Source: Felis catus
Taxonomy: Eukaryota
Length of the DNA stretch: 64,000 bases
NCBI RefSeq assembly: GCF_018350175.1
Contig: NC_058384.1
Coordinates: 67,952,001 to 68,016,000 of the forward strand
Reading direction: 5' to 3'
Part shown: piece by piece, positions 3,801 to 63,349 of the stretch
Layout of the letters: every line of letters begins with the position of its first letter
Numbering within the stretch: the stretch's first letter is position 1
Position numbers and translations under genes: made by a program
Notes under the pieces: model-generated
Databases searched by the model: none
Seen by the model: the letters and a program-made list of their open reading frames with translations, nothing else
Told to the model about the DNA's origin: nothing

Positions 3801-6800
3801 TCTGGGCCTCAGTTTCCTCCTCTGTCAAAAAAGGTATTAGACCAGATGGGGACCCTTCTTTCTATGACCTTGTTTATTCTACGGATAAAGAAAGGCCCAG
3901 GGGAAAGGCAGACAAGGGCCACTGGAACCCAGGCTAAAGGGCATGGACAGGAGGAGGGGGCAGGGCAGGAGGGAGACAGACGCGAGGGCCAGCAAGCCAG
4001 AGAGCAGGGGCCGGGAGGGGGCGAGTGAGAGCCGGACAGCAGCAGGAGACCAGGGTCAAGGGGAAGAGGAGGCAAGTAGAGAGGGCGAGGGTCCGGAGGA
4101 CAAAAGGTCAGAGGGCAGGGATTAGGCAGGAGCCCAAGGCAGGCAGAGAGAGAGAGACAGAGGGCGCTGGAGGGGGAGGACCGAGAAGGAAGCAGGGGTG
4201 GGTGGCCGAGCTGTGTGGNNNNNNNNNNNNNNNNNNNNNNNNNNNNNNNNNNNNNNNNNNNNNNNNNNNNNNNNNNNNNNNNNNNNNNNNNNNNNNNNNN
4301 NNNNNNNNNNNNNNNNNNNNNNNNNNNNNNNNNNNNNNNNNNNNNNNNNNNNNNNNNNNNNNNNNNNNNNNNNNNNNNNNGGCCGGGCTGGGCGGGAGGC
4401 CGGGACGTCCCGGTGGGCGCTGCCCCCCGGGCCCGCTGCTGGGGGGGGGGGGGAGACGGGGGAGGGCTCTAATGGGGCACGGGGCCTGGCCACCTCCTTA
4501 CCTCGCAGGAAGTTAAGCTCTGTCAGCAGCTTCATCTCACGCCCCACGTCCAGCTGACAGTGTCGGAAGGAGGAGCTGGCGGCCGGCCGGAAGGTCTGCA
4601 GGGCCTCCGTGGCCCGGGCAATCCTGCGACGGGGGCGCGCAAGGGTCAGGCACGGCCCTCCGGGCCGCCGCCCTTCCCCTCCGCCCGGCCCTGCCTGTCC
4701 CTAGAGCCTCGGCCCCTGCGGTGGGTCTCCTCCTGTCCCCGCAGGCGAGCTGGGTACCAGTTGGGCCCGGTGTTAAAGCCTGGGGACCTGTCTGTCCACC
4801 GGGCAGCACCTCGCACGCTGTCCCCGACACTGGCCGCACCCCTGCGTCTGTCCAGGGGGCTGCACCTCGCGTGCCGTCCTCGACACTGGCCGCACCCCTG
4901 CGCCCCCGCGCCCTGGGCCGCGCCCCCGGGTACCTGTTGTGCAGCTGCTTGGCTGCTTGCACAAAGCAGGGCTGGTCTGTTTCCTTAAGAACCTCCTGGG
5001 CATAGCCCACCAGGCCTGAGCCATCCAGTAGGCTCCGGTGCTCCTGGATCTGGGCGCCGAGACGGGCCAGGCGCTCCTGCTGGCACTCCTCAATGGCCTG
5101 GAGCAGCGATGCCCGCTTCTCCTCCAGCACAGCCCCCAGCCCCCGCACCAGCTGGGACACCTCCTCCTTGGCCTGCTGGCCACTCACCTGCCCAGAGAGC
5201 AACACTCACTATCTTCCTCTCGAAGGCGGCACGTGTGCCTGCCTCCTGGGGCGCCACACCGGGGCCGGGACCACGGCAGATCTGGGGAAACCCTACCCGC
5301 CCGTTCCAACAGAGCCAGGCTCGCGTCTCCAAAGACCCCCCGGACACCCACATGGGTTTAACTTCTGAAGCTTTGTGCTGACCTTCCTGGATGCCCACAC
5401 CACAGCCCTGAGCCCTTAAGGAGTCCCCCAAACAAGAGAGGCCACGACTGCACTAATGTCCACCGGCCTCCGCCCCTTCCTTATTGTCTATCCCCACGTC
5501 GGCCGATTCGAGCCATCTGCCGGAAAGTGTCAGAGGTGTGTGCCATCCTCCGCGGCGGCCGAGCCTGAGGGCATCTGAGCTATGTCTCCGGGGCTTTCCA
5601 AGCTCTCCCTGTCCTGGGTGACCGCCGCCCTGTCCCCACTGTAGCCCCAGGTACAGCCTCGTCTGGGGCACCCGTGTCCCAGCCAACCTGGCTTAACCAG
5701 AACCCCAACACATCCCTGGACCCCACATGGGCCTCCTGAGCTGGCAACCAGGTGATCGGGCCATGCCCACGCACACCCCCCCTGCCGGCTCCCACTCCCC
5801 GGCAGGGCCCAGGGCCCACCTCCATGCCCTCCCTCACCTCAGTGTGCCTCACGGTCTCCTCCAGCTCACAGATCTGGGTCTGTACCGTGTCCTGGTTTCC
5901 CAGGATGTATGTCAGGCTCTTTGTCAGCTTGTCCTGAGGGGGAAGAAAGAGGTGGGCATCATGCCTAGCTCGGCAGAGGCCAGCATGTAGGAGGAGGTGC
6001 CAGAGGGCGTGAGTGTGGGCTGAGCGAGGCAGAGTCCTCACCTTGAGGGCCTGGTAGGCGCTGAGCACCGGTGTGATCTTGTGCCCACCGTGGGTGCGCC
6101 TCACCCGGCAGAGCTGGCACACCAGCCGCTGGCACGTCTTGCAGTAATGGGTCACCTCTTCCTTGTGGTCTGGGCACATCAGGCCCTAGGGACAGAAAGA
6201 GCAGTGACGGAGTCAGCCGACGGGGGGCTTGAGGGGGCTGACCGACCACCCAAGCGCTTGGCCCTGCCTCTCCACGGCCCTGTGGGGGAGCCCGGCTGGG
6301 GTGCTCCACAGTGCCACCTGGTGGTGCACACTGGCACCAAAGGGAGCCTGGCCTGCACCAGGTTTTCGTCTAGCTCCGCCCTCCCCTCTACCTCCGGATG
6401 CGTGCTAATAGCAATAATAACGATAATTAATCTTCGCCTTGCGGCTAATAATTAACCTTGCCCATCTTGTTCACTGCCCTATCCCCGGCGTCTAGAATAG
6501 CACCAGGAACCAGGCTTGATAAATATTTACTCAGCGAACGCGTGAACGCAGACAGATCTTTTCAGCCTACAGGTAACTTTCACAAACACTATCTCATGTG
6601 ATCCCTTCCACAGCCCTCAGGGCATGGGGATGGCAGGGCAGATGTTATCCTTCTCATTCAGCAGACAGGATGGAGGCTGGACGATGTTTAAAGACTCGTC
6701 CGGTGCCTTTTTGCTGTTGTTGTTACAGAAAGAGGAGCCCGGCAGAGGCGAACCTCCACCCACCTCCTTTCGCGAGCCCACAGACCTGGGCTCGCCCCCC

Positions 6801-19700: not shown

Positions 19701-20118
19701 TTATTTTTATTATTATTTTTTTTAACATTTTTTTTCAACGTTTATTTATTTTTTTTTCGGACAGAGAGAGACAGAGCATGAACGGGGGAGGGGCAGAGAG
19801 AGAGGGAGACACAGAATCGGAAACAGGCTCCAGGCTCCGAGCCATCAGCCCAGAGCCTGACGCGGGGCTCGAACTCCCGGACCGCGAGATCGTGACCTGG
19901 CTGAAGTCGGACGCTTAACCGACTGCGCCACCCAAGCGCCCCTTATTTTTATTTTTTTGAGAGGAGGGGGAGGGGCAGAGAAAGAGGGAGAGAGAGAATC
20001 CCAAGCAGGCTCAGCACTGTCAGCGCGGAGCCCGATGCGGGTCTCAAACCCGTGAGATTGTGACCTGAGCTGACATCAAGAGTCAGACGCTTAACCGATT
20101 GAGCCACCCAGGTGCCCC
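19701..20118 (-). mobile_element. SINEC_Fc (to 19942) nested in the tail of an older SINEC (19943-20118)
   Basis: Two antisense SINE bodies; outer TSD TAAATTGG at 19681 and 20119; inner TSD-like TTATTTTTATT. Confidence 0.85.
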
Positions 20119-27776: not shown

Positions 27777-30700
27777 TCATGGGGTTTGCAGCAGCAGGAG
27801 CGGCAGAAGCAGCACAGCCCAGGCAAGTGGGAAGAGGCGGGGGGCAGCGCTGTGCCCGATGCTGTGTAGGACCTGTACCTCTGGGTCATCTGCAAGATGA
27901 GAGGGCGGAAGCCCCCAAGGTGAGTGGCCCTACTGCTGGCTCTGGCCCTCAGCTCAGCACGGTTTCCCCAGTCCCTGCCTGGCAAGGAAGCCACGTCCTG
28001 TACCCAACCTCTTTAAGCAGACCCCCTCTGTGCCCCAGGCCCAATTTTCTCTGGCTGCGTACCTGCTGGAAGTCTCTTCTCCTGTGGATTGACATGGGCC
28101 TGAGGACTGGGAGCTGAAAGGCAAGGGTGGTAGTGGGTCAGGTGCCAGGCCGGGGTGGGGGGGCGGGGCTCACGGGCGGCGGCCGGCTGGGCCGTTGGTG
28201 GCACTTCCCTGCCATCCCGGCTCACTAGCCCAGGATCAGCAAAGAGGTGCGGGAAGGAGACCCACAGGGCTCTGACACTCACTGATTTTGCCACTGACGA
28301 TCACCTTCAACCTCAAGCACTGGTCTTCCTGGTGGTGGATGGGTTTGGCTGCAAGATAAACCCACAGAGTGTTAAGGGAGGAACCTCTGTTGGAAGAAAT
28401 CACAAGTGCAAGCTTCTCCGCCTCTTTTTTCCCCGGCCCCGCTCATTCGAGCCCCTCGCTTCCCACTCATCTTTCATTCCCACCTTCCTTCCTTTGCCCG
28501 CTTTCTGCTTCCTGCTCAACCTCCCATTGTCTGGGATGACCCTTGGCTTTGGAGGCGGTGCTAAAAGGAGCACAGCCTTTCCCTCACTGCTCCCAGCCTG
28601 GAGTTGGCCGAGGCCTTCACAATATGCTCCCCTGCCTGGTATTCTCCCTGTCCAGGCCCCAGTGACAAGGCGAGGCCTGGATCCATTCTACACACAGCCG
28701 ATTTTCTAACTCCTGAATCCACCAGCGCCTCTCCGGCGCCTTCGGCAGAGTCCAAACTCCTTAGCACTTCCTAGGCCGCCGTGACATGTGGTGTGTGCCC
28801 TGTCCCCTCCACCCCTCCAAGCTTACCTCTCCCCACGTGCAGCGTCCCTCCTACTTCAGACGCGACCATATGGCGTTCCCTGAAGATGTCCTGCACCCAT
28901 TGCACATGTCCCCTCGTGCCCGGCCAACTCCTCGGCTTGTCCTAAGCTCTTGGGTCCTCGTCCCCAGGAACCCTTCTCTGGGTCTCCTGAGCCTGGCAGA
29001 TACCCAGGTCGTTTTCCCAAGGCCCCTGTGCCCATATCTTCATACCACATCGTTCTAACGGTCCGTTCACCTATGTGTGTCGCTTTCTAGCTTTCCGGGC
29101 TACAGGGACCCTGCAGCGTTTTATTGATCTCTGTGCCTGCGGTGCCAGGCAGAGTGCCCAGTACACAGAAGCTCATACCACGTGTGTAACGTGAGTGGAT
29201 TAAAACAATTCAGGATCGGAAGGGCCGTGTGTGGCTTCGTACTGAGCACGTGCCTCACACCTGCTGCGTCCCTGTGTGGCCCGTGCGCGCGCCCGGGGGA
29301 CTCACAGATGTAGTAGTAGCTGTGTCCCTCTTTGAACTCCTTGCCCAGGGTGAAGGGCGTGAAGCGCTGGAACTTCTCCGACAGCTTCTCCGGGCCGTGC
29401 CTGGCGCTCGGCTGGTTGCATTGCCAGCGGACCTGGTCCCTGGACTGGGGTTGGCACAGCTGGTACTGCTCACGCTCCACCAGATACAGGGTGTACCGCT
29501 CCATGGCGGCGGCCGCCACAGTGTCGTCCTCGTAATGCGGGCAGATGATGTCCAGGTAGTCATTGAGCCGGACGTGTACTGTGTAGTCCTCGTTCCGGAA
29601 CCTGTTCCCAGAGCGGGAGGCAACAGACGGTCACTCAGAGGCCAGGCTCCAGGCCAGAGCCGCGGGCCTGCGAGGGTCTACCTGCCCCCCCCCCCCCCCC
29701 CCCGGAGATTTCTGAACAGCCTCAACTCCCAGTGTTTTCTGACCTTGACCTCTTCAGTGTCTTCTCACCATCTTCGAACGTGCCACCCCCCTCACTGCGT
29801 CCGTCCTCTAAATTGCATCCGCCTGGCATCCTTCAGGTGCCCGACCACTTCCCGTAACCCCCGGGGGTTTGCCCAAGGAAGGGCTTCTGAGTGTGTCCTT
29901 AGCTCACTCACCACTTCCCCAAATCTGTGCTCCCGGCTGCTCTTCTCCAGCCCCGCCTGGGACCCAGCCCGCGACGCCCTCCCATCCGGAGAGCCGCGCT
30001 CAGCCCCAGCACAGCTGCGGCGGGGCCGCCCGCGCCCTCGCCCGTGCCCCCGGGGCGCGTTCACACTCGTCGGCTTCACTTCCGCCCCCGGCACACCAGG
30101 CCGGCACACACTCCCGGATCCGCCACTCTAGCGCCTCCTTGTCCGCTCCTCCCAAAGCATCCCCAGGCCTCCCCGTCCATCGCCAAAGCCACGCTCGCAC
30201 CTCCGCGGAAGGAGCTCCAGAAACGCTGGGGCTCTCGGCCCGGCGGAGGCCGCCCCAGGTGCTGCCAGCGCCCTCCCCGGGGCCCCTGCGGCTCCGGCCC
30301 GGCTCCGCCCTCCGGCCCCAGACACCTGGCTCCAGGCGCCGCGGGGCGGGGTCCGGGCGGGGGAGGGGCCTCCCCCGCCCCCCCCCCCCAGCCGGTCGGC
30401 CCCTCCGGATTCCCCCGGCGCGGCCGGCCGCCAACCCGCTTCAAACCCGGGCCCCGGCACGGGTGGGGGAGGGGCAAGAGCTCGGCCGAGCGGCCTGGTC
30501 GGGGTGGGGGTGGGGGTGGCACCCCCTGCCCGGTCGGCGGGCGCCCTCGGAGGCCCGGCCTGGGGGCGGCGAGCACCCGGGCCCCTCCCCCACCGGGGAG
30601 GGGGAGGAGGAGAGTGCCNNNNNNNNNNNNNNNNNNNNNNNNNNNNNNNNNNNNNNNNNNNNNNNNNNNNNNNNNNNNNNNNNNNNNNNNNNNNNNNNNN

Positions 30701-32713
30701 NNNNNNNNNNNNNNNNNNNNNNNNNNNNNNNNNNNNNNNNNNNNNNNNNNNNNNNNNNACCCGCCCCAGCACTCCTGAGAACCTGTGAAAATCTACCTGG
30801 TCAGAGGCGGCCGGCCCCCAGGACCTCAGGGCCAGGGCTTGCCCCGGGCACAGTCCTCCAGGCCCGGGAAGCCGGCGCCGGCCCCTCCAGCGCCCAGGAG
30901 CCCAGCGCCCGGCTCGCAGCAGCCCCGCCCTCCCGCCCGGGGCCTGGAGATCCCGCTCCGGCCCACCGCCCTGAGTCACCCAAACCAGCCCCACACCCAC
31001 CCAGCTCAGGGCCACCTCGTCTGTGCCTGCGAGCCGGGCCTGGCTCGGCCCCTGTGCACTCCACTCTGGCTGGTTCTCTTTAGTCCTGGGTATGGGAGGG
31101 TGTGTGTGTGTGTGTGTGTGTGTGGCCAGATGGACAGGGCAGAAGCTGTGCTTGGTGGGGGCACCCATTATCCCCCTCCTGGGGGTCCAATCTGTTCCAC
31201 TTAGCACTCCTTCGACTCTGGCTCTCCGTCTGGGAAAGGGGGGCAAGCGGCGTCAGGGAAGGCGGGGAGNNNNNNNNNNNNNNNNNNNNNNNNNNNNNNN
31301 NNNNNNNNNNNNNNNNNNNNNNNNNNNNNNNNNNNNNNNNNNNNNNNNNNNNNNNNNNNNNNNNNNNNNNNNNNNNNNNNNNNNNNNNNNNNNNNNNNNN
31401 NNNNNNNNNNNNNNNNNNNNNNNNNNNNNNNNNNNNNNNNNACTGGGTCAAGGAAGTACAGAGCAGGCAGGTGGGAGCAGCAGCGGGTGGGGAGGGCCGA
31501 CATTAGGGCTGCCCCTGATGCCGAAGGGCAAGAGGGCATTGCCTCCTGGGCTTGGCAGCAGCTGGCAGTTCCCTCCTGCCCCACAAGCCACAGCCTCCAG
31601 ACCCCCCACCAGGCAGCACTGCCACAGGGTCAGAGGAAGCTGGCACCACGGATTTCTCAAGCGGAGTGGGGGGCGGGCATGCAAGGGCTGGGGGTGGCCA
31701 AGCTGAGCGTTTATCCTGGCCAGCGCTGCCCAGCCCTCCTCCCCCTGCTCCGCCCTACCCACCTCTGGTGTTTTCCCACAAATATTGTTCCCGTAACTTC
31801 AGAAAACTCAAGGGCAAGAACAAAGGGTCCAATAGGGCTTCTCCCTCCCAGGGCCATTTGCCTCCTAGCCCTAAACCTGCCCAGGATGAGTTAACTCCTT
31901 CCTGCCCAGAGCCCCAAGTAACCCTTTTAACCCCTTCCATTCCTTCTGAACCTTTCCCATGACCTGCCTCCTCCCATCTCTTAATCTCATAAACAGGTGA
32001 CTCCCTCAGCCTACTACACAAGGCATGCGCCCCACTCATGCCACCTCAAAGGTTCCCTTGTGTGTGGAGGGGAGCTTTCCAGGGTCATCCTAAATACAGA
32101 GTGCACAAGCTTGAAGCCAGAAGGCCAGGCCCCTCCTGAGGGGTCCTTCCAGGATTACAGTGAACATTCTGCTTACTCCCCATGTCACATCAGGCACCTA
32201 TCTGTGTGGGCAGACATCCAAGCGACAAGAGGCACAGAGGCTTTTGTCGTGGAAGGGCCTAGAACGAGAGCCGTCGGCGCCAGGGAGGGTGGTCCAGGCT
32301 GGAGGCAGGAAGTGTTCAGCAAGGGTCCCTCACTTCAGAGTTAACAGGGGGCCAGGGGGGGGTGGAAAGGAAGGGCAGAGAGAACCCAGTGCAAGTAACT
32401 AGCAGGCAGGCTCCTGCCCAGGGCTGGGGTACTCCTAGTTATGTCCCAGTTACCGGGGAGAAGCGAGGGGAAGAAACTCCACGGGATCCCTCCCGCCTCT
32501 GGTCGCGGCCCCAAGACTCAGGTCAGGGGCTGGCCGGGACAGTTAACCGGGCCGCGGTGGGGGTGGGGGTGGGCAGTGCCAGCCGGGCGCCCGGGCTGCC
32601 GGGCGGAGACTCGGGGCTTACTTGGGGTTTGAACTGTTCCAGAAGACGGTGTGGCGGTCAGCAGCGGCCAGACTGCAGCACAGGCCCAAGAGCGGGGCCC
32701 AGAGGAACTCCAT
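27777..32713 (-). CDS. EFNA1: Ephrin-A1 (GPI-anchored Eph ligand), 205 aa
   Basis: Exons 32713-32622, 29601-29306, 28348-28283, 28113-28063, 27889-27777 = 618 nt. Signal peptide MEFLWAPLLGLCCSLAAADRHTVFWNSSNPK, ephrin domain (EKFQRFTPFTLGKEFKEGHSYYYIS), hydrophobic GPI signal at the C-terminus. Confidence 0.97.
28620..29210. mobile_element. L2 LINE relic in EFNA1 intron 2
   Basis: AAACTCCTTAGCA…AGAGTGCCCAGTACACAGAAGCTC L2 3'-end-like motifs. Confidence 0.5.
29930..31050. promoter_or_regulatory. Intronic CpG island in EFNA1 intron 1
   Basis: CpG/GC-rich block with GC boxes and an ETS-like CACTTCCG; contains an N gap. Confidence 0.6.
30619..30758. other. Assembly gap (N) in EFNA1 intron 1
   Basis: Run of n. 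Confidence 1.
31100..31123. repeat. (GT)n microsatellite
   Basis: Seen directly. Confidence 0.9.
31270..31441. other. Assembly gap (N) in EFNA1 intron 1
   Basis: Run of n. Confidence 1.
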
Positions 32714-44492: not shown

Positions 44493-44676
44493 GACATTTC
44501 GTCTTTAGCAAAGTTCACTGTGTCCTTTCCCTTCTGAAATTCAACTGAATGTGTGTCTGTCGCCGTTACGCGCCCTGTGGGGACCAGAGCTGGGTCTTAG
44601 CGGTGCCTCCCTTTCAGCTCCGTGCCCAGAGAGGGCTCTTGGTTCATATCTGTTGAATTAAACTGTTTTTTTTCTT

Positions 44677-45146
44677 AAAAAAATTTTTTTTAATGTTTTA
44701 TTTACTTTTGAGAGAGAGAGAGAGACAGAGCACGAGCAGGGGAGGGGCAGAGAGAGAGGGAGACACAGAATCGGAAGCGGGCTCCAGGTTCTGAGCTGTC
44801 CCCACAGAGCCCAACGCGGGGCTCGAACTCATAAGCTGCGAGGTCATGACCTGAGCCGAAGTCGGAGGCTTAACCGACAGAGCCACCCAGGGGCCCCAGT
44901 TTTGCTATACTTTAATGTTTTCTTTCTGGTTTTTTTAATGTTTATTTATTTTTGAGAGAGAGAGACAGAGACAGACACAGTGTGACTGGGGGGAGGGGCA
45001 GAGAGAGGGAGACACAGAATCCAAAGCAGGCTCTGGGCTCCGAGCTGTCAGCACAGAGCCCGACGCAGGGCTCGAACCCACGAACTGGGAGATCATGACC
45101 TGGGCCGAAGTCCGACACTCAACCAACTGAGCCACCCAGGCGCCCC
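44677..45146 (-). mobile_element. Dimeric SINEC (copy A) with 30-nt linker
   Basis: Two SINEC monomers joined by a linker at 44898-44927, inside a single TSD pair TAAACTG(T)nCTTAA. Confidence 0.85.
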
Positions 45147-46004
45147 TAAACTGTTTTTTTTTTTCTTAACAGGATTACTGGGCAGACCTAATTCGGTAAC
45201 AGCCATCACACTTTAAGATATATTTTTAAATTTCATTGTCCTCGAGCCCTGCCTCGATGGAATATAGATGTAATTGTGCTGAATTTAGAATTAGTGGAAT
45301 TCAAGGTATAGTTTGAAGACCATCTGGTTTTGTTTGATTGTAGTTCTGAAACACAATGTCTATCTCATGTGGAAACCCCTTGGGGACAGCATTTGTGGGG
45401 GGCAAGGTGACCTGTGGTAGATCTTCGTCATGACCTTCCGTGGCACCTGACGGATGAAGGGCGTTTCTCTCCGCACCTGCGCCCTCTTCTTTGTGCTGGT
45501 CGCGGGGTCGGATAGGGCGGAGCCCCACACCGAGCAGGGAAGGAACATTCGATTCACGTGAGTGCCCCAGACGCAGCCTGGTTCGGCGCAAGCGTTAAAG
45601 GGAGTGGCAGTGTGGCAGGCTAGGTGTGGCGGTCAACTCTCGGAAAGAAACAACCACAACAACAACAGCTGATGATGGTGGGCGGCTGGCCGAGAGGCTG
45701 TGTTGGAGCAGAATTCCCGGGACAGGGGCCGCCCCGCGTGGGTTGCACGTGAAGGTGGTGTTCGTGTCCTTTTCCTTGGTTTCCCCGCTGCCCCAGGGAG
45801 ACGCGGTGCCTGGAAGCCAGGAGGGCTGGGGGTTTAAACACGAGGCAGCAGCGGTCCTGGGTCTCGGTTCCCTCAACTGTGACAATGGGAAGAATAACGC
45901 AGTGTCAGCCTGCTTGCTCGTCCCTGTTCCCCCCTCTGCCTGGCAGATCCCCTCCTCCTCCTCCCCTGCCTCCCGGCCATGCAAGCCGCCCTCTCTTCAC
46001 GTTC

Positions 46005-50470: not shown

Positions 50471-50990
50471 GGGGCGCCTAGGTGGCTCAGTCGGTTGAGT
50501 ATCTGACTTCGGCTCAGGTCATGATCTCGCGGTTCGTGGGTTGGAGCCCCGCGTCGGGCTCTGTGCTGACAGCTCGGAGCCTGGAGCCTGTTTCAGATTC
50601 TGTGTCTCCCTCTCTCTCTGACCCTCCCCTGCTTGCTCTCTGTCTCTCTCAAAAATAGTAAACATTAAAAACAAAATTAAAAAAGAAAGAAAGAAAGAAA
50701 TGGTGACTGAGGGGCACCCGGCGGGTTCGGTCTGCAGAATGTACGGCTCTTGGTCTCGGGGTTGTGAGTTCAAGCCCCACATTGGGTGCACAGCTTACTT
50801 AAAATAAATAAATAAATAAATAAATACAAACAAAAGAAAAACCTCAATTAAAAAAAATGGTAACTGATTAGTTTGTTTTTTTTTTAAAGTTTATTTTCTT
50901 TTTCAGTAATCTCTATGCCCAACGTGTGGCTCGCTCACGACCCCGAGGTCAAGAGTTGCACACTTCACCGACCGAGCCAGCCCGGTGCCC
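50471..50990. mobile_element. Cluster: SINEC (+, 50471-~50700), short SINE (+, 50711-~50855), short SINE (-, ~50880-50990)
   Basis: SINE heads and tails; second element has TSD AAATGGTRACTGA. Confidence 0.8.
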
Positions 50991-55370: not shown

Positions 55371-55818
55371 GGGGCGCCTGGGTGGCTCAGTCGGTTAAGC
55401 GTCCGACTTCAGCCAGGTCACGATCTCGCGGTCCGTGAGTTCGAGCCCCGCGTCGGGCTCTGGGCTGACGGCTCAGAGCCTGGAGCCTGTTTCCGATTCT
55501 GTGTCTCCCTCTCTCTGACCCTCCCCCATTCATGCTCTGTCTCTCTCTGTCTCAAAAATAAATAAACGTAAAAAAAAAAATTAAAAAAAAAACAGTACAC
55601 AGAGTGGGGCGCCTGGGTGGCTCAGTCGGTTGGGCGGCCGACTTCGGCTCAGGTCACGATCTCGCGGTCCCTGAGTTCGAGCCCCGCGTCGGGCTCTGTG
55701 CTGACGGCTCAGAGCCTGGAGCCTGTTTCGGATTCTGTGTCTCCCTCTCTCTGACCCTCCCCCGTTCATGCTCTGTCTCTCTCTCTCTCTCAAAAATAAA
55801 TAAACGTTAAAAAAAAAA
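55371..55818 (+). mobile_element. Two tandem young SINEC_Fc elements (55371-~55592; 55606-55818)
   Basis: Near-consensus felid SINE bodies with intact CpGs. Confidence 0.9.
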
Positions 55819-56526
55819 GAGCAGATTAGACACTGGAGACAAAAGATTGGTGAGCTTGAAGACTTAGCCACAGAAACGATCTAAAACGAAGCACAGAAAA
55901 AGACGAGAAGAAGAAGGACAAGGAGGCGAAAAAGGAGGGAGAGGAAGGGGAGGAGGGGAGGGAAAGTCGGTGAGCTGTGGAATCCTGTCAGGTCCACACA
56001 TCTGTTTGGGGACCCAGACACACGGGAAGGGGCCGACAGCCAAATATTTGAAGAAACAGTGGCCCAAAGGCTTTCCAGTTTTGATGAAAACCATAAAGCC
56101 AGATATCCCAGAAGCCCCCAAGCCCCAAAGCACGAGACACGTGAGGCAACCGCGTGCAGACACGTCGGAATCTGCCGTGAGCAGCAGTGACAAGGAGCGA
56201 ATCCTAAGAGCAGCCGGAGGGAAAACAGAGCGCGAAGGAGGAAAGGGGAAGCAGGCTTCTCGTCAGAAACGACGGAGGCCCGAAGACGGGGCGGCAACGT
56301 CTTCATAAAAGTGAAGACAGAAGCAGGGGAGATGGCAGAAGCTGAAAGAATCTGTCGTCACCAGCAGGCCGGCACTAAAGAAAGTAATTTAAGTCCTTCA
56401 AGCAGAAGAAAAATGCCAGATGGAAACATCCATCTCTACAAAGGAACGGGCGAAGGGCACCAGGAGGGTAAACATGTGCCTGAGCACAAAAGGCCTTTTT
56501 CTTGTTTCCAAATTCTCCGTAAGAGA

Positions 56527-56672
56527 GGCGCCCGGCTGGCTCAGTCGGTAGAGCACGAGATTCTCGGTCTCGGGGTAGTGAGTTCAAGCCCCACGCTGGG
56601 TGTGGAGCCTACGTAAGGAAATGAAGTGAAATATAAAATAGACTAGACTAGAATAGAATAAAATAGACTAAA
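56527..56672 (+). mobile_element. Short tRNA-Lys-derived SINE
   Basis: GCCCGGCTGGCTCAGTCGGTAGAGCA...CCCCACGCTGGGTG followed by an A-rich pentamer tail. Confidence 0.7.
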
Positions 56673-58914: not shown

Positions 58915-60505
58915 GTATCCCCCCAGCCTGGCCGTGTCCCCTGGTCCCAGCCCATGTCCCCCCGGCCCAGCCATGTCCCTGGTCCCAGCCCGTGTCCCCT
59001 GGTCCCAGCCCGTGTTCCCCCAGGCCAGCCATGTCCCTCGTCCCAGCCCGTGTCCCCTGGTCCCAGCCCGTGTCCCCCTGGCCCAGCCATGTCCCTGGTC
59101 CCAGCCTGTGTCCCTGGTCCCAGCCTGTGTCCCGTGGTCCCAGCCAGTGTCCAACCAGCCCAGCCATGTCCCTGGTCCCAGCCCATGTCCCCCTGGCCCA
59201 GCCATGTCCCTGGTCCCAGCCTGTGTCCCGTGGTCCCAACCAGTGTCCAACCAGCCCAGCCATGTCCCTGGTCCCAGCCTGTGTCCCCTGGTCGCAGCCC
59301 ATGTCCCACCAGCCCAGCCGTGTCCCCTGGTCCCAGCCGGTGTCCCCTCAGCCCAGCCATGTCCCCTGGTCCCAGCCCGTGTCCCCTGGTCCCAGCCCAT
59401 GTACCCCCAGCCCAGCCGTGTCCCCTGGTCCCAGCCCGTGTCCCCTGGTCCCAGCCATGTCCCTGGTCCCAGCCCGTGTCCCCCCAGCCCAGCCCGTGTC
59501 CCCCCGGCCCAGCCGTGTCCCCTGGTCCCAGCCCGTGTCCCCTGGTCCCAGCCATGTCCCTGGTCCCAGCCCGTGTCCCCCCAGCCCAGCCCGTGTCCCC
59601 CCGGCCCAGCTGTGTCCCCTGGTCCCAGCCCATGTCCCCCCAGCCCAGCCGTGTCCCTGGTCCCAGCCCGTGTCCCCCTGGCCCAGCCGTGTCTCCTGGC
59701 CCCAGCCCGTGTCCCCTGGTCCCAGTCCGTGTCCCCCCAGCCCAGCCCGTGTCCCCCCGGCCCAGCCGTGTCCCCTGGTCCCAGCCCATGTCCCCCCAGC
59801 CCAGCCGTGTCCCTGGTCCCAGCCCGTGTCCCCCTGGCCCAGCCGTGTCTCCTGGCCCCAGCCCGTGTCCCCTGGTCCCAGTCCATGTCCCCCCAGCCCA
59901 GCCGTGTCCCTGGTCCCAGCCCGTGTCCCCTGGTCCCAGCCCGTGTGCCCCCAGCCCAGCCGTGTCCCCTGGTCCCAGCCTGTGTGCCCCCGGCCCAGCC
60001 ATGTCCGCTGGTCCCAGCCCGTGTCCCCTGGTCCCAGCCATGTCCCCTGGTCCCAGACTATGTCCCCCCGGCCCAGCCATGTCCCCTGGTCCCAGCCATG
60101 TCCCCTGGTCCCAGCCATGTCCCTGGTCCCAGCCCATGTCCCCTGGTCCCAGCTGTGTCCCCTGGTCCCAGCCCGTGTCCCCCCGGCCCCAGCCATGTCC
60201 CCTGGTCCCAGCCCGTTTCCCCCCGGCCCAGCCATGTCTCCTGGTCCCAGCCCGTGTGCCCCCGGCCCAGCCGTGTCCCCTGGTCCCAGACTATGTCCCC
60301 CCGGCCCAGCCATGTCCCCTGGTCCCAGCCCGTGTCCCCCCGGCCCAGCCGTGTCCCTGGTCCCAGCCCGTGTCCCCCCGGCCCAGCCATGTCCCCTGGT
60401 CCCAGCCCGTGTCCCCCCGGCCCAGCCATGTCCCCTGGTCCCAGCCATGTCCCTGGTCCCAGCCCATGTCCCCTGGTCCCAGCCCGTGTCCCCCCGGCCC
60501 AGCTC
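58915..60505. repeat. Complex GC-rich minisatellite (VNTR), ~18-20 nt variant units such as GTGTCCCCTGGTCCCAGCCC / ATGTCCCCCCGGCCCAGCC
   Basis: About 80 imperfect tandem units visible directly. Confidence 0.95.
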
Positions 60506-61211
60506 AACCCACGCTGCTAGGTTTGCCAGCTGAGGAGAACGGGCAGGGTGGGGGAGACCGTGTGAGGCTTTGGGGCGGAGCAGCTCTGGCCAGACAGGAC
60601 AGGACGGTCCACTCCCAAGGCCTCAGCGCCTAAAGTGGGAGGGTTGGGGGAGCAGGCCGAAAAGGGCAGGAGGGGCTGTGGGATGCGGGGGGCGTGGGGG
60701 CCTCACACCTTCTGGCAGCCCCCAGCAGGTGGTCCGGACACCGCAGGGCCCATGTGTGGCAGGGGAGGGAGGTGGCTCAGCCCTCCCTCCCCCTGCTTTG
60801 GTCCAGTTTCTTCCGCCCAGCCCCCAGTGTCCCTGAATGTCGTGCTCGGTCCCAGATACCACAGGCAGGGATCCTGTGCCGGGCGGGCTCGGGGTCGCTG
60901 GTGTCTATACATCTAAGTGTTGGCCTGTGTCCCCACCTCTCCCAGGCTCTGGGAACAAAAGTCTTGCCAGGGGGAGGGGGTGTCCGGGTAAGACCCTTGG
61001 CTGAAGGGGAGAGGCACTTTCTCTATATTCGCTGCTTGGGGTGACTTAAGAGGTTTCAAATATCAGCCTTCAGTCCCTGGGAAGCTTTAAGTCTCTGGTG
61101 GGGCAAGGCTGTCTGGTAGAAGAGACGGGAACTCGGGATACCTGAGTCCTGGGGCTTCTCTGCCGTGGGCACCCATCGCTTGCCCTTTCTGAGCTTTAGT
61201 TTTTTCCTGTC

Positions 61212-61565
61212 TTCTTTTTTTTATGTTTATTTATTTATTTTGAGAGACAGAGAGAGAGAGAGAGAGAGCCCTCATATGCGCAAGCAGAGGAGGGGCAGAG
61301 AGACAGGGGGAGAGAGAATCTCAAGCAGGCTCCAGGCTCTGAGCTGTCAGCACAGAGCCTGATGTGGGGCTTGAACCACAACCATGAGATCATGACCTGA
61401 GCCGAAATCGAGTCAGACACTCAACCGACTGAGCCCCCAGGCACCCCAAATGTCCTTTTTTTTTCTTTAAAGTTTTATTTATTTAAGTAATCTCTATGCC
61501 CATCAAGGGGCTCTAACTCATGACCTGGAGGTCCAGAGTCACATGCTCCTCTGATGGAGCCAGGC
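61212..61565 (-). mobile_element. SINEC (61212-61448) plus short SINE (~61465-61565)
   Basis: Antisense SINE motifs. Confidence 0.8.
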
Positions 61566-61596
61566 TAGTTTTCCTGTCCTTAAAATGTGGGGTTCA

Positions 61597-62035
61597 GGGG
61601 CACCTGGGTGGCTCAGTCGGTTGAGCGTCTGACTTTGGGTCAGGTCATGATCTCACGGCTCGTGAGTTTGAGCCCCGTGTCAGGCTCTGTGCTGACAGCT
61701 CGGAGCCTGGAGCCTGCTTCAAAGTCTGTGTCTCACTCTTTCTGCCCCTCCCCCCACTCACACTCTGTCTCTCTCAAAAATAAATAAACATTAAAAAAAT
61801 TAGAAAGAAAACATTAAAGCATAGCAAATCTGGGGCACCTGCGTGGCTCAGTCGGTTAAGCATCCGACTTCAGCTCAGGTCATAATCTCGCGGTCCGTGA
61901 GTTCGAGCCCCACATCGGGCTCGGTGCTGACAGCTCAGAGCCTGTTTCCGATTCTGTGTCTCCCTCTCTCTCTGCCCCTCCCCTACTTGCAGTCTGTCTT
62001 TCTCTCAAAAATAAACATTAAAAAAAACTTTTTTT
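61597..62035 (+). mobile_element. Dimeric SINEC (copy B) with 30-nt linker
   Basis: Two monomers joined by a linker at 61802-61831, inside a single TSD pair AATGTGGRGTTCA (61584-61596; 62037-62049). Confidence 0.85.
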
Positions 62036-62675
62036 GAATGTGGAGTTCAGACTGGCTCAGCCAATCCAGATTGGAGGCCTTTTGCTGTCTTTCTCCAAAG
62101 ACCCCGAGTGACTTTGGTGGAGGGGCCATCAGGATCTGTGGGAAGCAGTTCCGGGCGGTGGTCCAGGCTGTAATAGAGCGTGGTGTCCGTCGGACCCACC
62201 TTGAATGCCAGCCGTGCCAGGATGTGTGGCCCTGATCGCAGGACATAGCTCCTTAAACTCTCAGGCTTCCCATCTGTGCTGTTGGGACAGCGAGGCGTCC
62301 AAGGGCACAGAAACACGGGGTGCAGCGCCTGGCATGTAGCACGTGCTAGGTAAACGGGAGCTGGCTTTCTCTAGTTCCTGCCCCCAGATGCCCGGGACTC
62401 TGTCTTCCCATGGCTGCATTTTTGAACCTACTAAGCCCTCCCCATCTCAGCGCGCTGCCCCCCCTCCTCGTCCCCTGTGCCCCTGGGATGTGAGGACCTA
62501 CAGCTTAGGCCCGCCGCGTTGGCTCCTTCAAGGCCCTCCCCTCTCCCCAGGGGCTGCCAGCTATGTGTACCTCCTCCCAGCAGCCTCTTTCCTGTGTCCC
62601 CAGGCACAGGGGTACGTTCCCCTCCACGTTCCCACAGCCCCCTGGCATTTAACCATGTAACACTCGGTGTTGTCC

Positions 62676-62701
62676 TGTGTGTGTGTGTGTGTGTGTGTGT
62701 G
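62676..62701. repeat. (GT)n microsatellite
   Basis: Seen directly. Confidence 0.9.
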
Positions 62702-63349
62702 ATTGATCCCTCTTCACATGGCAACACACGCTAAATTATGAGCTAACTGGAGGCAGAGGCTGTCCTTGCACCCCCAGCACCCAGGATAGAGCCTGGCCTG
62801 GAAACCATGACCGGATGGACGAACCTACCTTTCCAGTTGTGTCTCCAGGTGGGGAGCCTCAGACTGGTGTCCTGGCTGCCCCCGGTCCTTTCCCCACTGC
62901 CCTCCGTCCCCTACTGCTCCGCCAGCAGGAAACCTACCCGCTCTCCACGGTCCAGAAGAAATTCCAGTTCCCGTGTTTCATGAGTACAGAGTGAAGACCC
63001 AGTCCCTGCCAGAGAGGGGCTCGTTCTCAGGATGCAGCTGTCGAGAGCCACCAGGGCCCAAGGCCCTCACCCAGGACCCAGCCTGCCCACACAGTGCCAG
63101 TCGGAGAACCAGGGTGCGATGGGGCCCCAAGGGTGTGCACCTTGGAAGAAGGCGCCCCCTCCCTGGTGGGGTTCGGCCTCTGTCATCACCCACACTCAGT
63201 GCCCACCCTGGCCTCACCCAGCCTGGCAGGGCCATGTGACCGCGTCACCTGCTCGCCTGTCTTTTGCTTTCTGTCTCCTCTCTCTCCTGACAGATGGAGG
63301 GTGGCAGCGGCCCCAGCAGCAGCAAACTCAGCCCTCGCGCCATAGTGTT

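Follow-up and report, generated by a model that had tools for sequence, protein, structure and literature searches.

A rare two-monomer CanSINE with a sibling copy in a 64-kb window of the cat genome, likely mobilised as a unit

Introduction

When two SINEs lie head to tail between a single pair of TSDs, did they arrive together, as one dimeric element, or one after the other? This question is raised by a locus in a 64,000-nucleotide stretch of Felis catus DNA (assembly GCF_018350175.1, contig NC_058384.1, positions 67,952,001 to 68,016,000, forward strand; hereafter the window), where a sequence-only reading had proposed a dimeric SINE, referred to below as dimer B. Successful dimeric SINEs are known only from the time after their success. 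A stalled, linker-tagged dimer with tens of copies would show the step of their birth, would make it possible to trace a Pol III source from parent to daughters, and would let the rise and failure rate of read-through dimers be counted among about a million CanSINEs.

Layout of dimer B

The locus is composed of the following parts:

61580-61585 (+): TT/AAAA motif, by its sequence an L1-endonuclease-type target site
61584-61596, possibly 61582-61596 (+): 5' TSD
61597-61801 (+): monomer 1, a feliform IIA-like CanSINE, with box A (61609-61620), a CpG-decayed box B (61664-61675), the TC motif, AATAAA at 61779 and 61783, then A7 and TT alone (61800-61801) at the place of the terminator
61802-61831 (+): 30-bp linker, with an A-rich start followed by a non-SINE stretch
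61832-62036 (+): monomer 2, an IIA-like CanSINE, with box A (61844-61855), box B (61899-61910), a 7-bp internal deletion near 61938, AATAAA (62010-62015) and an A8-C-T7 tail (T7, 62029-62035)
62037-62049 (+): 3' TSD

The two monomers start at 61597 and 61832 and follow each other head to tail in a unit of about 440 bp. They had been described as jointly enclosed by a TSD, with no TTTT in the linker and a long T run solely at the end of monomer 2, and the sequence bears out all three statements. The TSD copies, AATGTGGGGTTCA at 61584-61596 and AATGTGGAGTTCA at 62037-62049, are identical at 12 of 13 positions; their score was equalled by 11 of 3000 random 30-mers compared with the same downstream interval, and the upstream sequence of dimer B ranked first for TSD match among the upstream sequences of 24 SINE heads. 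In view of the context of the 5' copy (CCTT/AAAATGTGG), an original TSD of 15 bp, starting at 61582, is possible. The TTAAAA sequence is an integration motif of CanSINEs and Alu, according to PMC4084570. The linker (61802-61831) lacks TTTT, and the T7 at 62029-62035 is the single run of at least four T between 61597 and 62049. A TCTTT, a moderate Pol III terminator (PMC9599045), also occurs inside each monomer (61737-61741 in monomer 1; 61997-62001 in monomer 2). Because both TCTTT sites are missing from the sibling dimer described below, they are likely later mutations.

Identity of the monomers

Judged by their motifs, both monomers are full-length feliform CanSINEs of the subtype IIA kind; this subtype groups with Repbase SINEC_Fc2 (PMC4084570). 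Each possesses a box A, a box B, a TC motif and an AATAAA; box B of monomer 1 carries a CpG-type change, and this monomer ends in TT alone. The subfamily I marker TCCTGAT has no match in 61590-62040. At the IIA/IIB indel of the tRNA region, the position of which was matched by eye to the text of PMC4084570, the T is kept in both monomers (GGTCAGG at 61638 and GCTCAGG at 61873); the T-less form occurs in three young copies in the window. Where the subfamily II motif GGCTCGG is expected, near position 118, the monomers read AGCTCGG at 61697 and AGCTCAG at 61932 (one to two mismatches), and an exact GGCTCGG is found in dimer B at 61918, but at another position than the subfamily II motif. Position 3 of box B is a T in both monomers, as described for cats and civets but not caniforms (PMC9599045). 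The lack of TCCTGAT, the kept T, the T in box B and, in the dimer, the TC motif, AATAAA and T terminator are all likenesses to subtype IIA.

ARAGORN calls a tRNA-Gln at 61602-61687, which we rejected as a tRNA gene, this segment being the SINE head of monomer 1. The RNA fold z-score of the dimer (-3.57) would be expected for GC-rich tRNA-derived repeats and was not used as evidence. The dimer has no match in Rfam; the only Rfam match in the window is a tRNA at 56530-56602 (+; 48.8 bits), which, in view of the A-rich tail that comes next, resembles a short SINE of tRNA origin more than a tRNA gene.

A sibling dimer with the same linker

Two copies had been counted in the window, and a search with the linker retrieved both of them: allowing up to three mismatches, the linker pattern occurs at two places in the 64 kb, whereas 0 of 100 shuffles gave two. 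The second place lies inside a dimer with a TSD of its own:

44677-45146 (-): sibling dimer, copy C, with monomer starts at 45146 and 44897, linker at 44927-44898 and a T7 ending monomer 2
45147-45161 (-): 5' TSD of dimer C, matching 44659-44673 at 15 of 15 positions and unrelated to the TSD of dimer B
44659-44673 (-): 3' TSD of dimer C

The linkers of B and C are identical at 28 of 30 positions, and the two dimers lie 17 kb apart on opposite strands. The outer TSD of C was equalled by chance in 3 of 3000 trials. Monomer 1 is followed by TT in B and by CC in C, and monomer 2 by T7 in both; no terminator separates the monomers in B or C, save for a TCTTT private to B. We rejected a segmental duplication as the source of the two dimers, knowing that their flanks fail to align. 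In the terms of the SINEBase definition, complete monomers are combined in an interspersed element shorter than 1 kb (440 bp, two loci, different TSDs and flanks). Exact searches for the linker pattern gave no hit in viral or metagenome contigs, a count that is uninformative as it came without a positive control.

It is worth noting that the first 26 bases of monomer 2 of C (44897-44872, -) are identical to those of a deleted SINE located 405 bp downstream (44492-44467, -), including two changes that are rare among the other copies. This identity possibly reflects a short gene conversion.

Single unit or nested pair

The window harbors 28 SINE heads (27 found by search and one by eye) that form seven head-to-tail pairs, five of which lack the shared linker. 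Two of these five have an outer TSD as well (20118/19942, 33/3000 by chance; 61568/61447, 13/3000). A clear inner TSD of the second SINE was detected in two of the five, at 19942 and 50712 (each 5/3000), which served as positive controls; the pair 17119/17215 has neither an outer nor an inner TSD, and the pair 55371/55606 has no TSD. By the same measure, monomer 2 has no inner TSD in dimer B (score 5, equalled by chance in 578/3000) or dimer C (score 5, 361/3000).

An outer TSD alone does not show a mobile dimer, because a nested insertion into the tail of an older SINE looks alike, as in the pair 20118/19942. This is a warning of general value, as is the fact that repeat annotation scores such copies as two insertions. 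The proposal that dimer B was inserted as one unit is nevertheless supported, by the linker in common with C together with the missing inner TSD. Since the 30-base linker recurs in a second pair 17 kb away, we regard the pair as likely copied as one unit.

Several of the other SINE assemblies deserve a description. The segment 20118-19690 (-) is a clean nested insertion, and a useful control, in which an old subfamily I copy has received a young IIB CanSINE in its tail; the young SINE has a TSD of its own, and the TSD of the old one encloses both. A third head-to-tail pair at 55371-55820 (+) comprises two young, similar CanSINEs that are 4.9% apart, the first IIB and the second IIA. Their linker is a different one, and tests of three configurations gave no TSD. 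The flanks of this pair presumably belong to an old L1 with a piece missing, which makes an insertion- or recombination-linked deletion possible. At 61568-61200 (-), a short SINE resembling a tRNA stands head to tail with a long CanSINE; the outer TSD of this pair (13/3000) is accompanied by a weak inner TSD (178/3000). The pair ends some 15 bp away from the dimer B TSD, resulting in a four-SINE pile-up. Finally, a long CanSINE, a short SINE flanked by a TSD of its own and a short SINE on the opposite strand are packed within about 520 bp at 50471-50990.

Divergence, kinship and age

Of the 438 sites aligned between the two dimers, 57 differ (0.130), 24 of the differences being of the CpG type, and the divergence is flat along the length (19/175 in the central part versus 38/263 in the outer parts; Fisher p=0.31). 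As the value of 0.130 is near the mean distance of subtype IIA (0.137; PMC4084570, Table 1), we infer that both copies are old and probably fixed in felids. Subtype IIA has been dated from about 35 Mya onward (PMC4084570).

In a comparison of 12 young monomers with CpG columns masked, the monomers 1 of B and C were reciprocal nearest neighbours (10/115, 8.7%; the next at 9.6%), and they have in common one TC-motif indel that is absent from eight others. The monomers 2 of B and C (6/114, 5.3%) are not mutually nearest and no closer together than to unrelated copies: monomer 2 of B is 4.8% from the copy s52582, and monomer 2 of C is 4.5% from the copy s51997. In a tree of 18 monomers, none of the 15 inner branches was starred and the dimer monomers were not grouped. 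Altogether, the monomers lend modest support to a dimer that moved as a unit.

Copy number of the dimer

All 24 listed resequencing runs derive from one organism, and each contains 67-92% of the sampled words of 60600-63300. The contigs of four of the 24 runs (four studies) were aligned to 61732-61911 at 80% likeness, and locus-equivalents were calculated as the summed depth divided by the median depth of eight listed contigs per run. Summed depth had two peaks, of 15-48 million at the tail of monomer 1 and of 24-51 million at the head of monomer 2, and dropped at 61822-61823 to 1293.9, 601.8, 1137.6 and 464.3 in the four runs, the depth at the linker core being about 1/34,000 to 1/51,000 of the monomer depth in all of them. 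In locus-equivalents, the linker core (61821-61823) reached 29.5, 29.1, 29.7 and 26.6 and the monomer parts 0.7-1.4 million, figures that set an order-of-magnitude ceiling, given that contig depth is not a copy number, that the records are filtered and that some differences go uncounted. The high genomic copy number that had been suggested for the dimer thus finds no support in any of the four runs, where only the monomers attain about a million.

How far these records represent the dimer was gauged from their letters and by simulation. G61819 is kept in 76-83% and G61824 in 84-90% of the linker-core records, and neither the C>A change at 61820 nor indels in the linker are among the differences listed for the four runs. 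Unrelated tail-to-head pairs mostly show as joints (350 kinds) rather than as alignments through the linker. With strict scoring, 0 of 9000 simulated unrelated linkers passed the 80% threshold, which was passed by 88-99% of the homologues; over four scoring schemes, true homologues at 8-12% divergence passed in 88-100% of the trials. With lenient scoring, 4-27% of the unrelated linkers passed, and one null composition retained 63-84% of the reference letters, close to the observed profile. In five to seven contigs, the linker letters fit an (AT)n stretch. Some of the linker-core records may be unrelated to the dimer. A candidate T-variant sub-lineage at 61820 (6-12 contigs) was dropped, as (AT)n linkers yield the same letters.

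We estimate the dimer copies at about 20, with a strict range from 2 to about 30. The dimer is likely present at only tens of genomic copies, which would make it a minor lineage that came to a dead end and not an abundant new element. SINEBase sets the criterion for a SINE family at 100 copies (PMC3531059); the dimer remains below this figure, with about 27-30 locus-equivalents at most by a rough measure from contig depth.

Proposed origin and alternatives

We consider it fairly probable that L1 made both B and C from one read-through transcript, that this transcript came from a single source elsewhere, and that only tens of copies resulted. A third locus is invoked because neither the B nor the C locus explains the linker alone. 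At this source, a CanSINE with a rudimentary TT terminator would have been followed, after about 30 bp, by a second CanSINE, an arrangement that nested targeting often gives, existing CanSINEs being frequent targets of felid CanSINEs (PMC4084570). Pol III would start at monomer 1, cross the linker and stop at the T run of monomer 2; it has been reported that TT cannot terminate Pol III and that terminators further downstream are usable (PMC9599045). In monomer 2, the AATAAA and the TC motif would then direct polyadenylation of the RNA by the T+ route, as described for Can transcripts, the T runs of which lengthen after their A-tails shorten (PMC9599045). The L1 ORF2p, which mobilises a canine tRNA-derived SINE in cells (PMC11260458), would insert the dimer RNA at TT/AAAA sites, leaving one TSD per dimer. 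The lineage would have died out during the expansion of subtype IIA, probably before the radiation of the living cats. Overall, the process would be similar to a 3' transduction whose cargo is the second SINE.

The proximity of B and C bears directly on this proposal. Were 20-30 copies placed uniformly, the chance of a pair within 17 kb would be only about 0.3-0.6%, so that the proximity calls for a local mechanism or for selection by a scan. Selection over many windows, combined with the existence of many small lineages, could account for it. The main rival takes the other course: a single-SINE locus with its TSD would have copied the tail-linker-head segment from the dimer located 17 kb off, by break repair or ectopic gene conversion, so that a dimer was formed without retrotransposition. 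Local copying would suit a proximity that is improbable for a family of tens, as well as the position near the linker of the sole indel exclusive to the monomers 1, the outer parts having no exclusive shared change. The 26-base identity of monomer 2 of C with the SINE 405 bp away hints at local conversion too, and conversion between neighbouring Alus is documented, but its effect acts within about 10 kb (PMC8230782). Moreover, no identity peak surrounds the linker, more than two records appear to carry it, and the donor dimer has no inner TSD, so that a third source locus would still be needed. We regard local copying as unlikely.

The linker speaks against the other alternatives, either by its scarcity or by its recurrence. 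An abundant, established, Alu-like dimeric family of at least 100 copies could be suspected from two copies in 64 kb, all the more as read alignment drops some records unseen and takes only alignments of at least 80%; yet the low linker-core counts recurred in four of four runs against those of the flanking monomer parts, and simulated homologues pass the threshold in most trials, which makes such a family very improbable. Two independent insertions at B, with the A-tail of the first SINE as the target of the second, would follow a habit common in felids (PMC4084570) and seen in the window, where two of the five other head-to-tail pairs have a clear inner TSD. Monomer 2 has none, and two unrelated loci could not have acquired one and the same non-SINE linker through independent events; this reading is already contradicted and we give it almost no credence. 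No more credible is a one-off concatemer formed by an L1 reverse transcriptase jumping between two SINE RNAs during one insertion, which would produce a single TSD around two different monomers and leave unexplained a linker 28/30 identical at two loci.

Relation to known elements

Dimer B compares with known systems as follows. Subtype IIA is described as monomeric, its tandem arrays being put down to repeated targeting (PMC4084570), whereas the dimer recurs with a fixed linker and one TSD. With the complex SINEs Alu, B1-dID and Urop it has in common two complete monomers, an A-rich linker and a unit that is likely mobilised by L1 (PMC3531059; bioRxiv 10.1101/2024.08.25.609555). The same sources give 280,000 copies for Urop and over a million for Alu, as compared to about 30 or fewer for the CanSINE dimer. 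Both of its monomers keep a full box A/B, TC motif and AATAAA; there was no specialisation, and dimerisation brought no success. The TT after monomer 1, the later stop and the long T run without an A-tail resemble T+ Can SINEs with downstream terminators, but these add a few bases of tail or TSD, whereas the dimer adds a 30-bp spacer and an entire SINE (PMC9599045). As in L1 3' transduction families, carried unique downstream sequence marks the siblings of one source (PMC13756887); unlike in these families, the read-through would be by Pol III instead of Pol II, and the cargo is a SINE.

None of the literature searched on dimeric or tandem CanSINEs lists a dimeric CanSINE; one could be contained in Repbase or Dfam, in subscription papers or in figure-only alignments, which lay outside this search. 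The word 'dimer' is absent from the main text of PMC4084570, PMC9599045, PMC6230240, PMC11699766, PMC13141329 and PMC13756887, and a text search, which does not reach picture alignments, found no linker words in 12 of the 13 supplements of PMC4084570. In sum, dimer B is a real two-monomer CanSINE that has a sibling, is rare and was likely mobilised from one source as a unit. It behaves as a dimeric SINE would at its beginnings, or as a 3' transduction by Pol III, and present counts do not make it a SINE family. It is distinctly unlikely that we are dealing with more, namely an undescribed dimeric CanSINE lineage that is the carnivore counterpart of the first Alu-type dimerisation step, caught ahead of its failure, in which the linker tags the daughters of one Pol III source as a barcode would and the copies cluster locally. 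Such local clustering, if true, would be direct evidence of SINE re-insertion near the parent copy.

Genomic surroundings

Pfam searches of 145 of the 169 stop-to-stop ORFs of the window (the others overlap N runs or a VNTR, with a few near 30-32 kb) identified RING, B-box and fn3 exons, a keratinocyte-associated protein 2 exon and an ephrin exon (29121-29630). No further match was obtained in these 145 ORFs, the nearest one to the dimers being the ephrin exon, about 15 kb from C; for this reason, the effect on cat biology is likely nil. Assuming the human gene order, which we take to be TRIM46, KRTCAP2, EFNA1, EFNA3, the dimers would fall between two ephrin-A genes. The N runs of the window (4219-4380, 30619-30758 and 31270-31441; 474 bases in all) are far from the dimers. 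A GC-rich minisatellite with units of 19/20 bp occupies 58918-60493 (TRF periods 39, 58 and 97; about 40 copies of 39 bp) and leaves several frames open for 540-620 codons.
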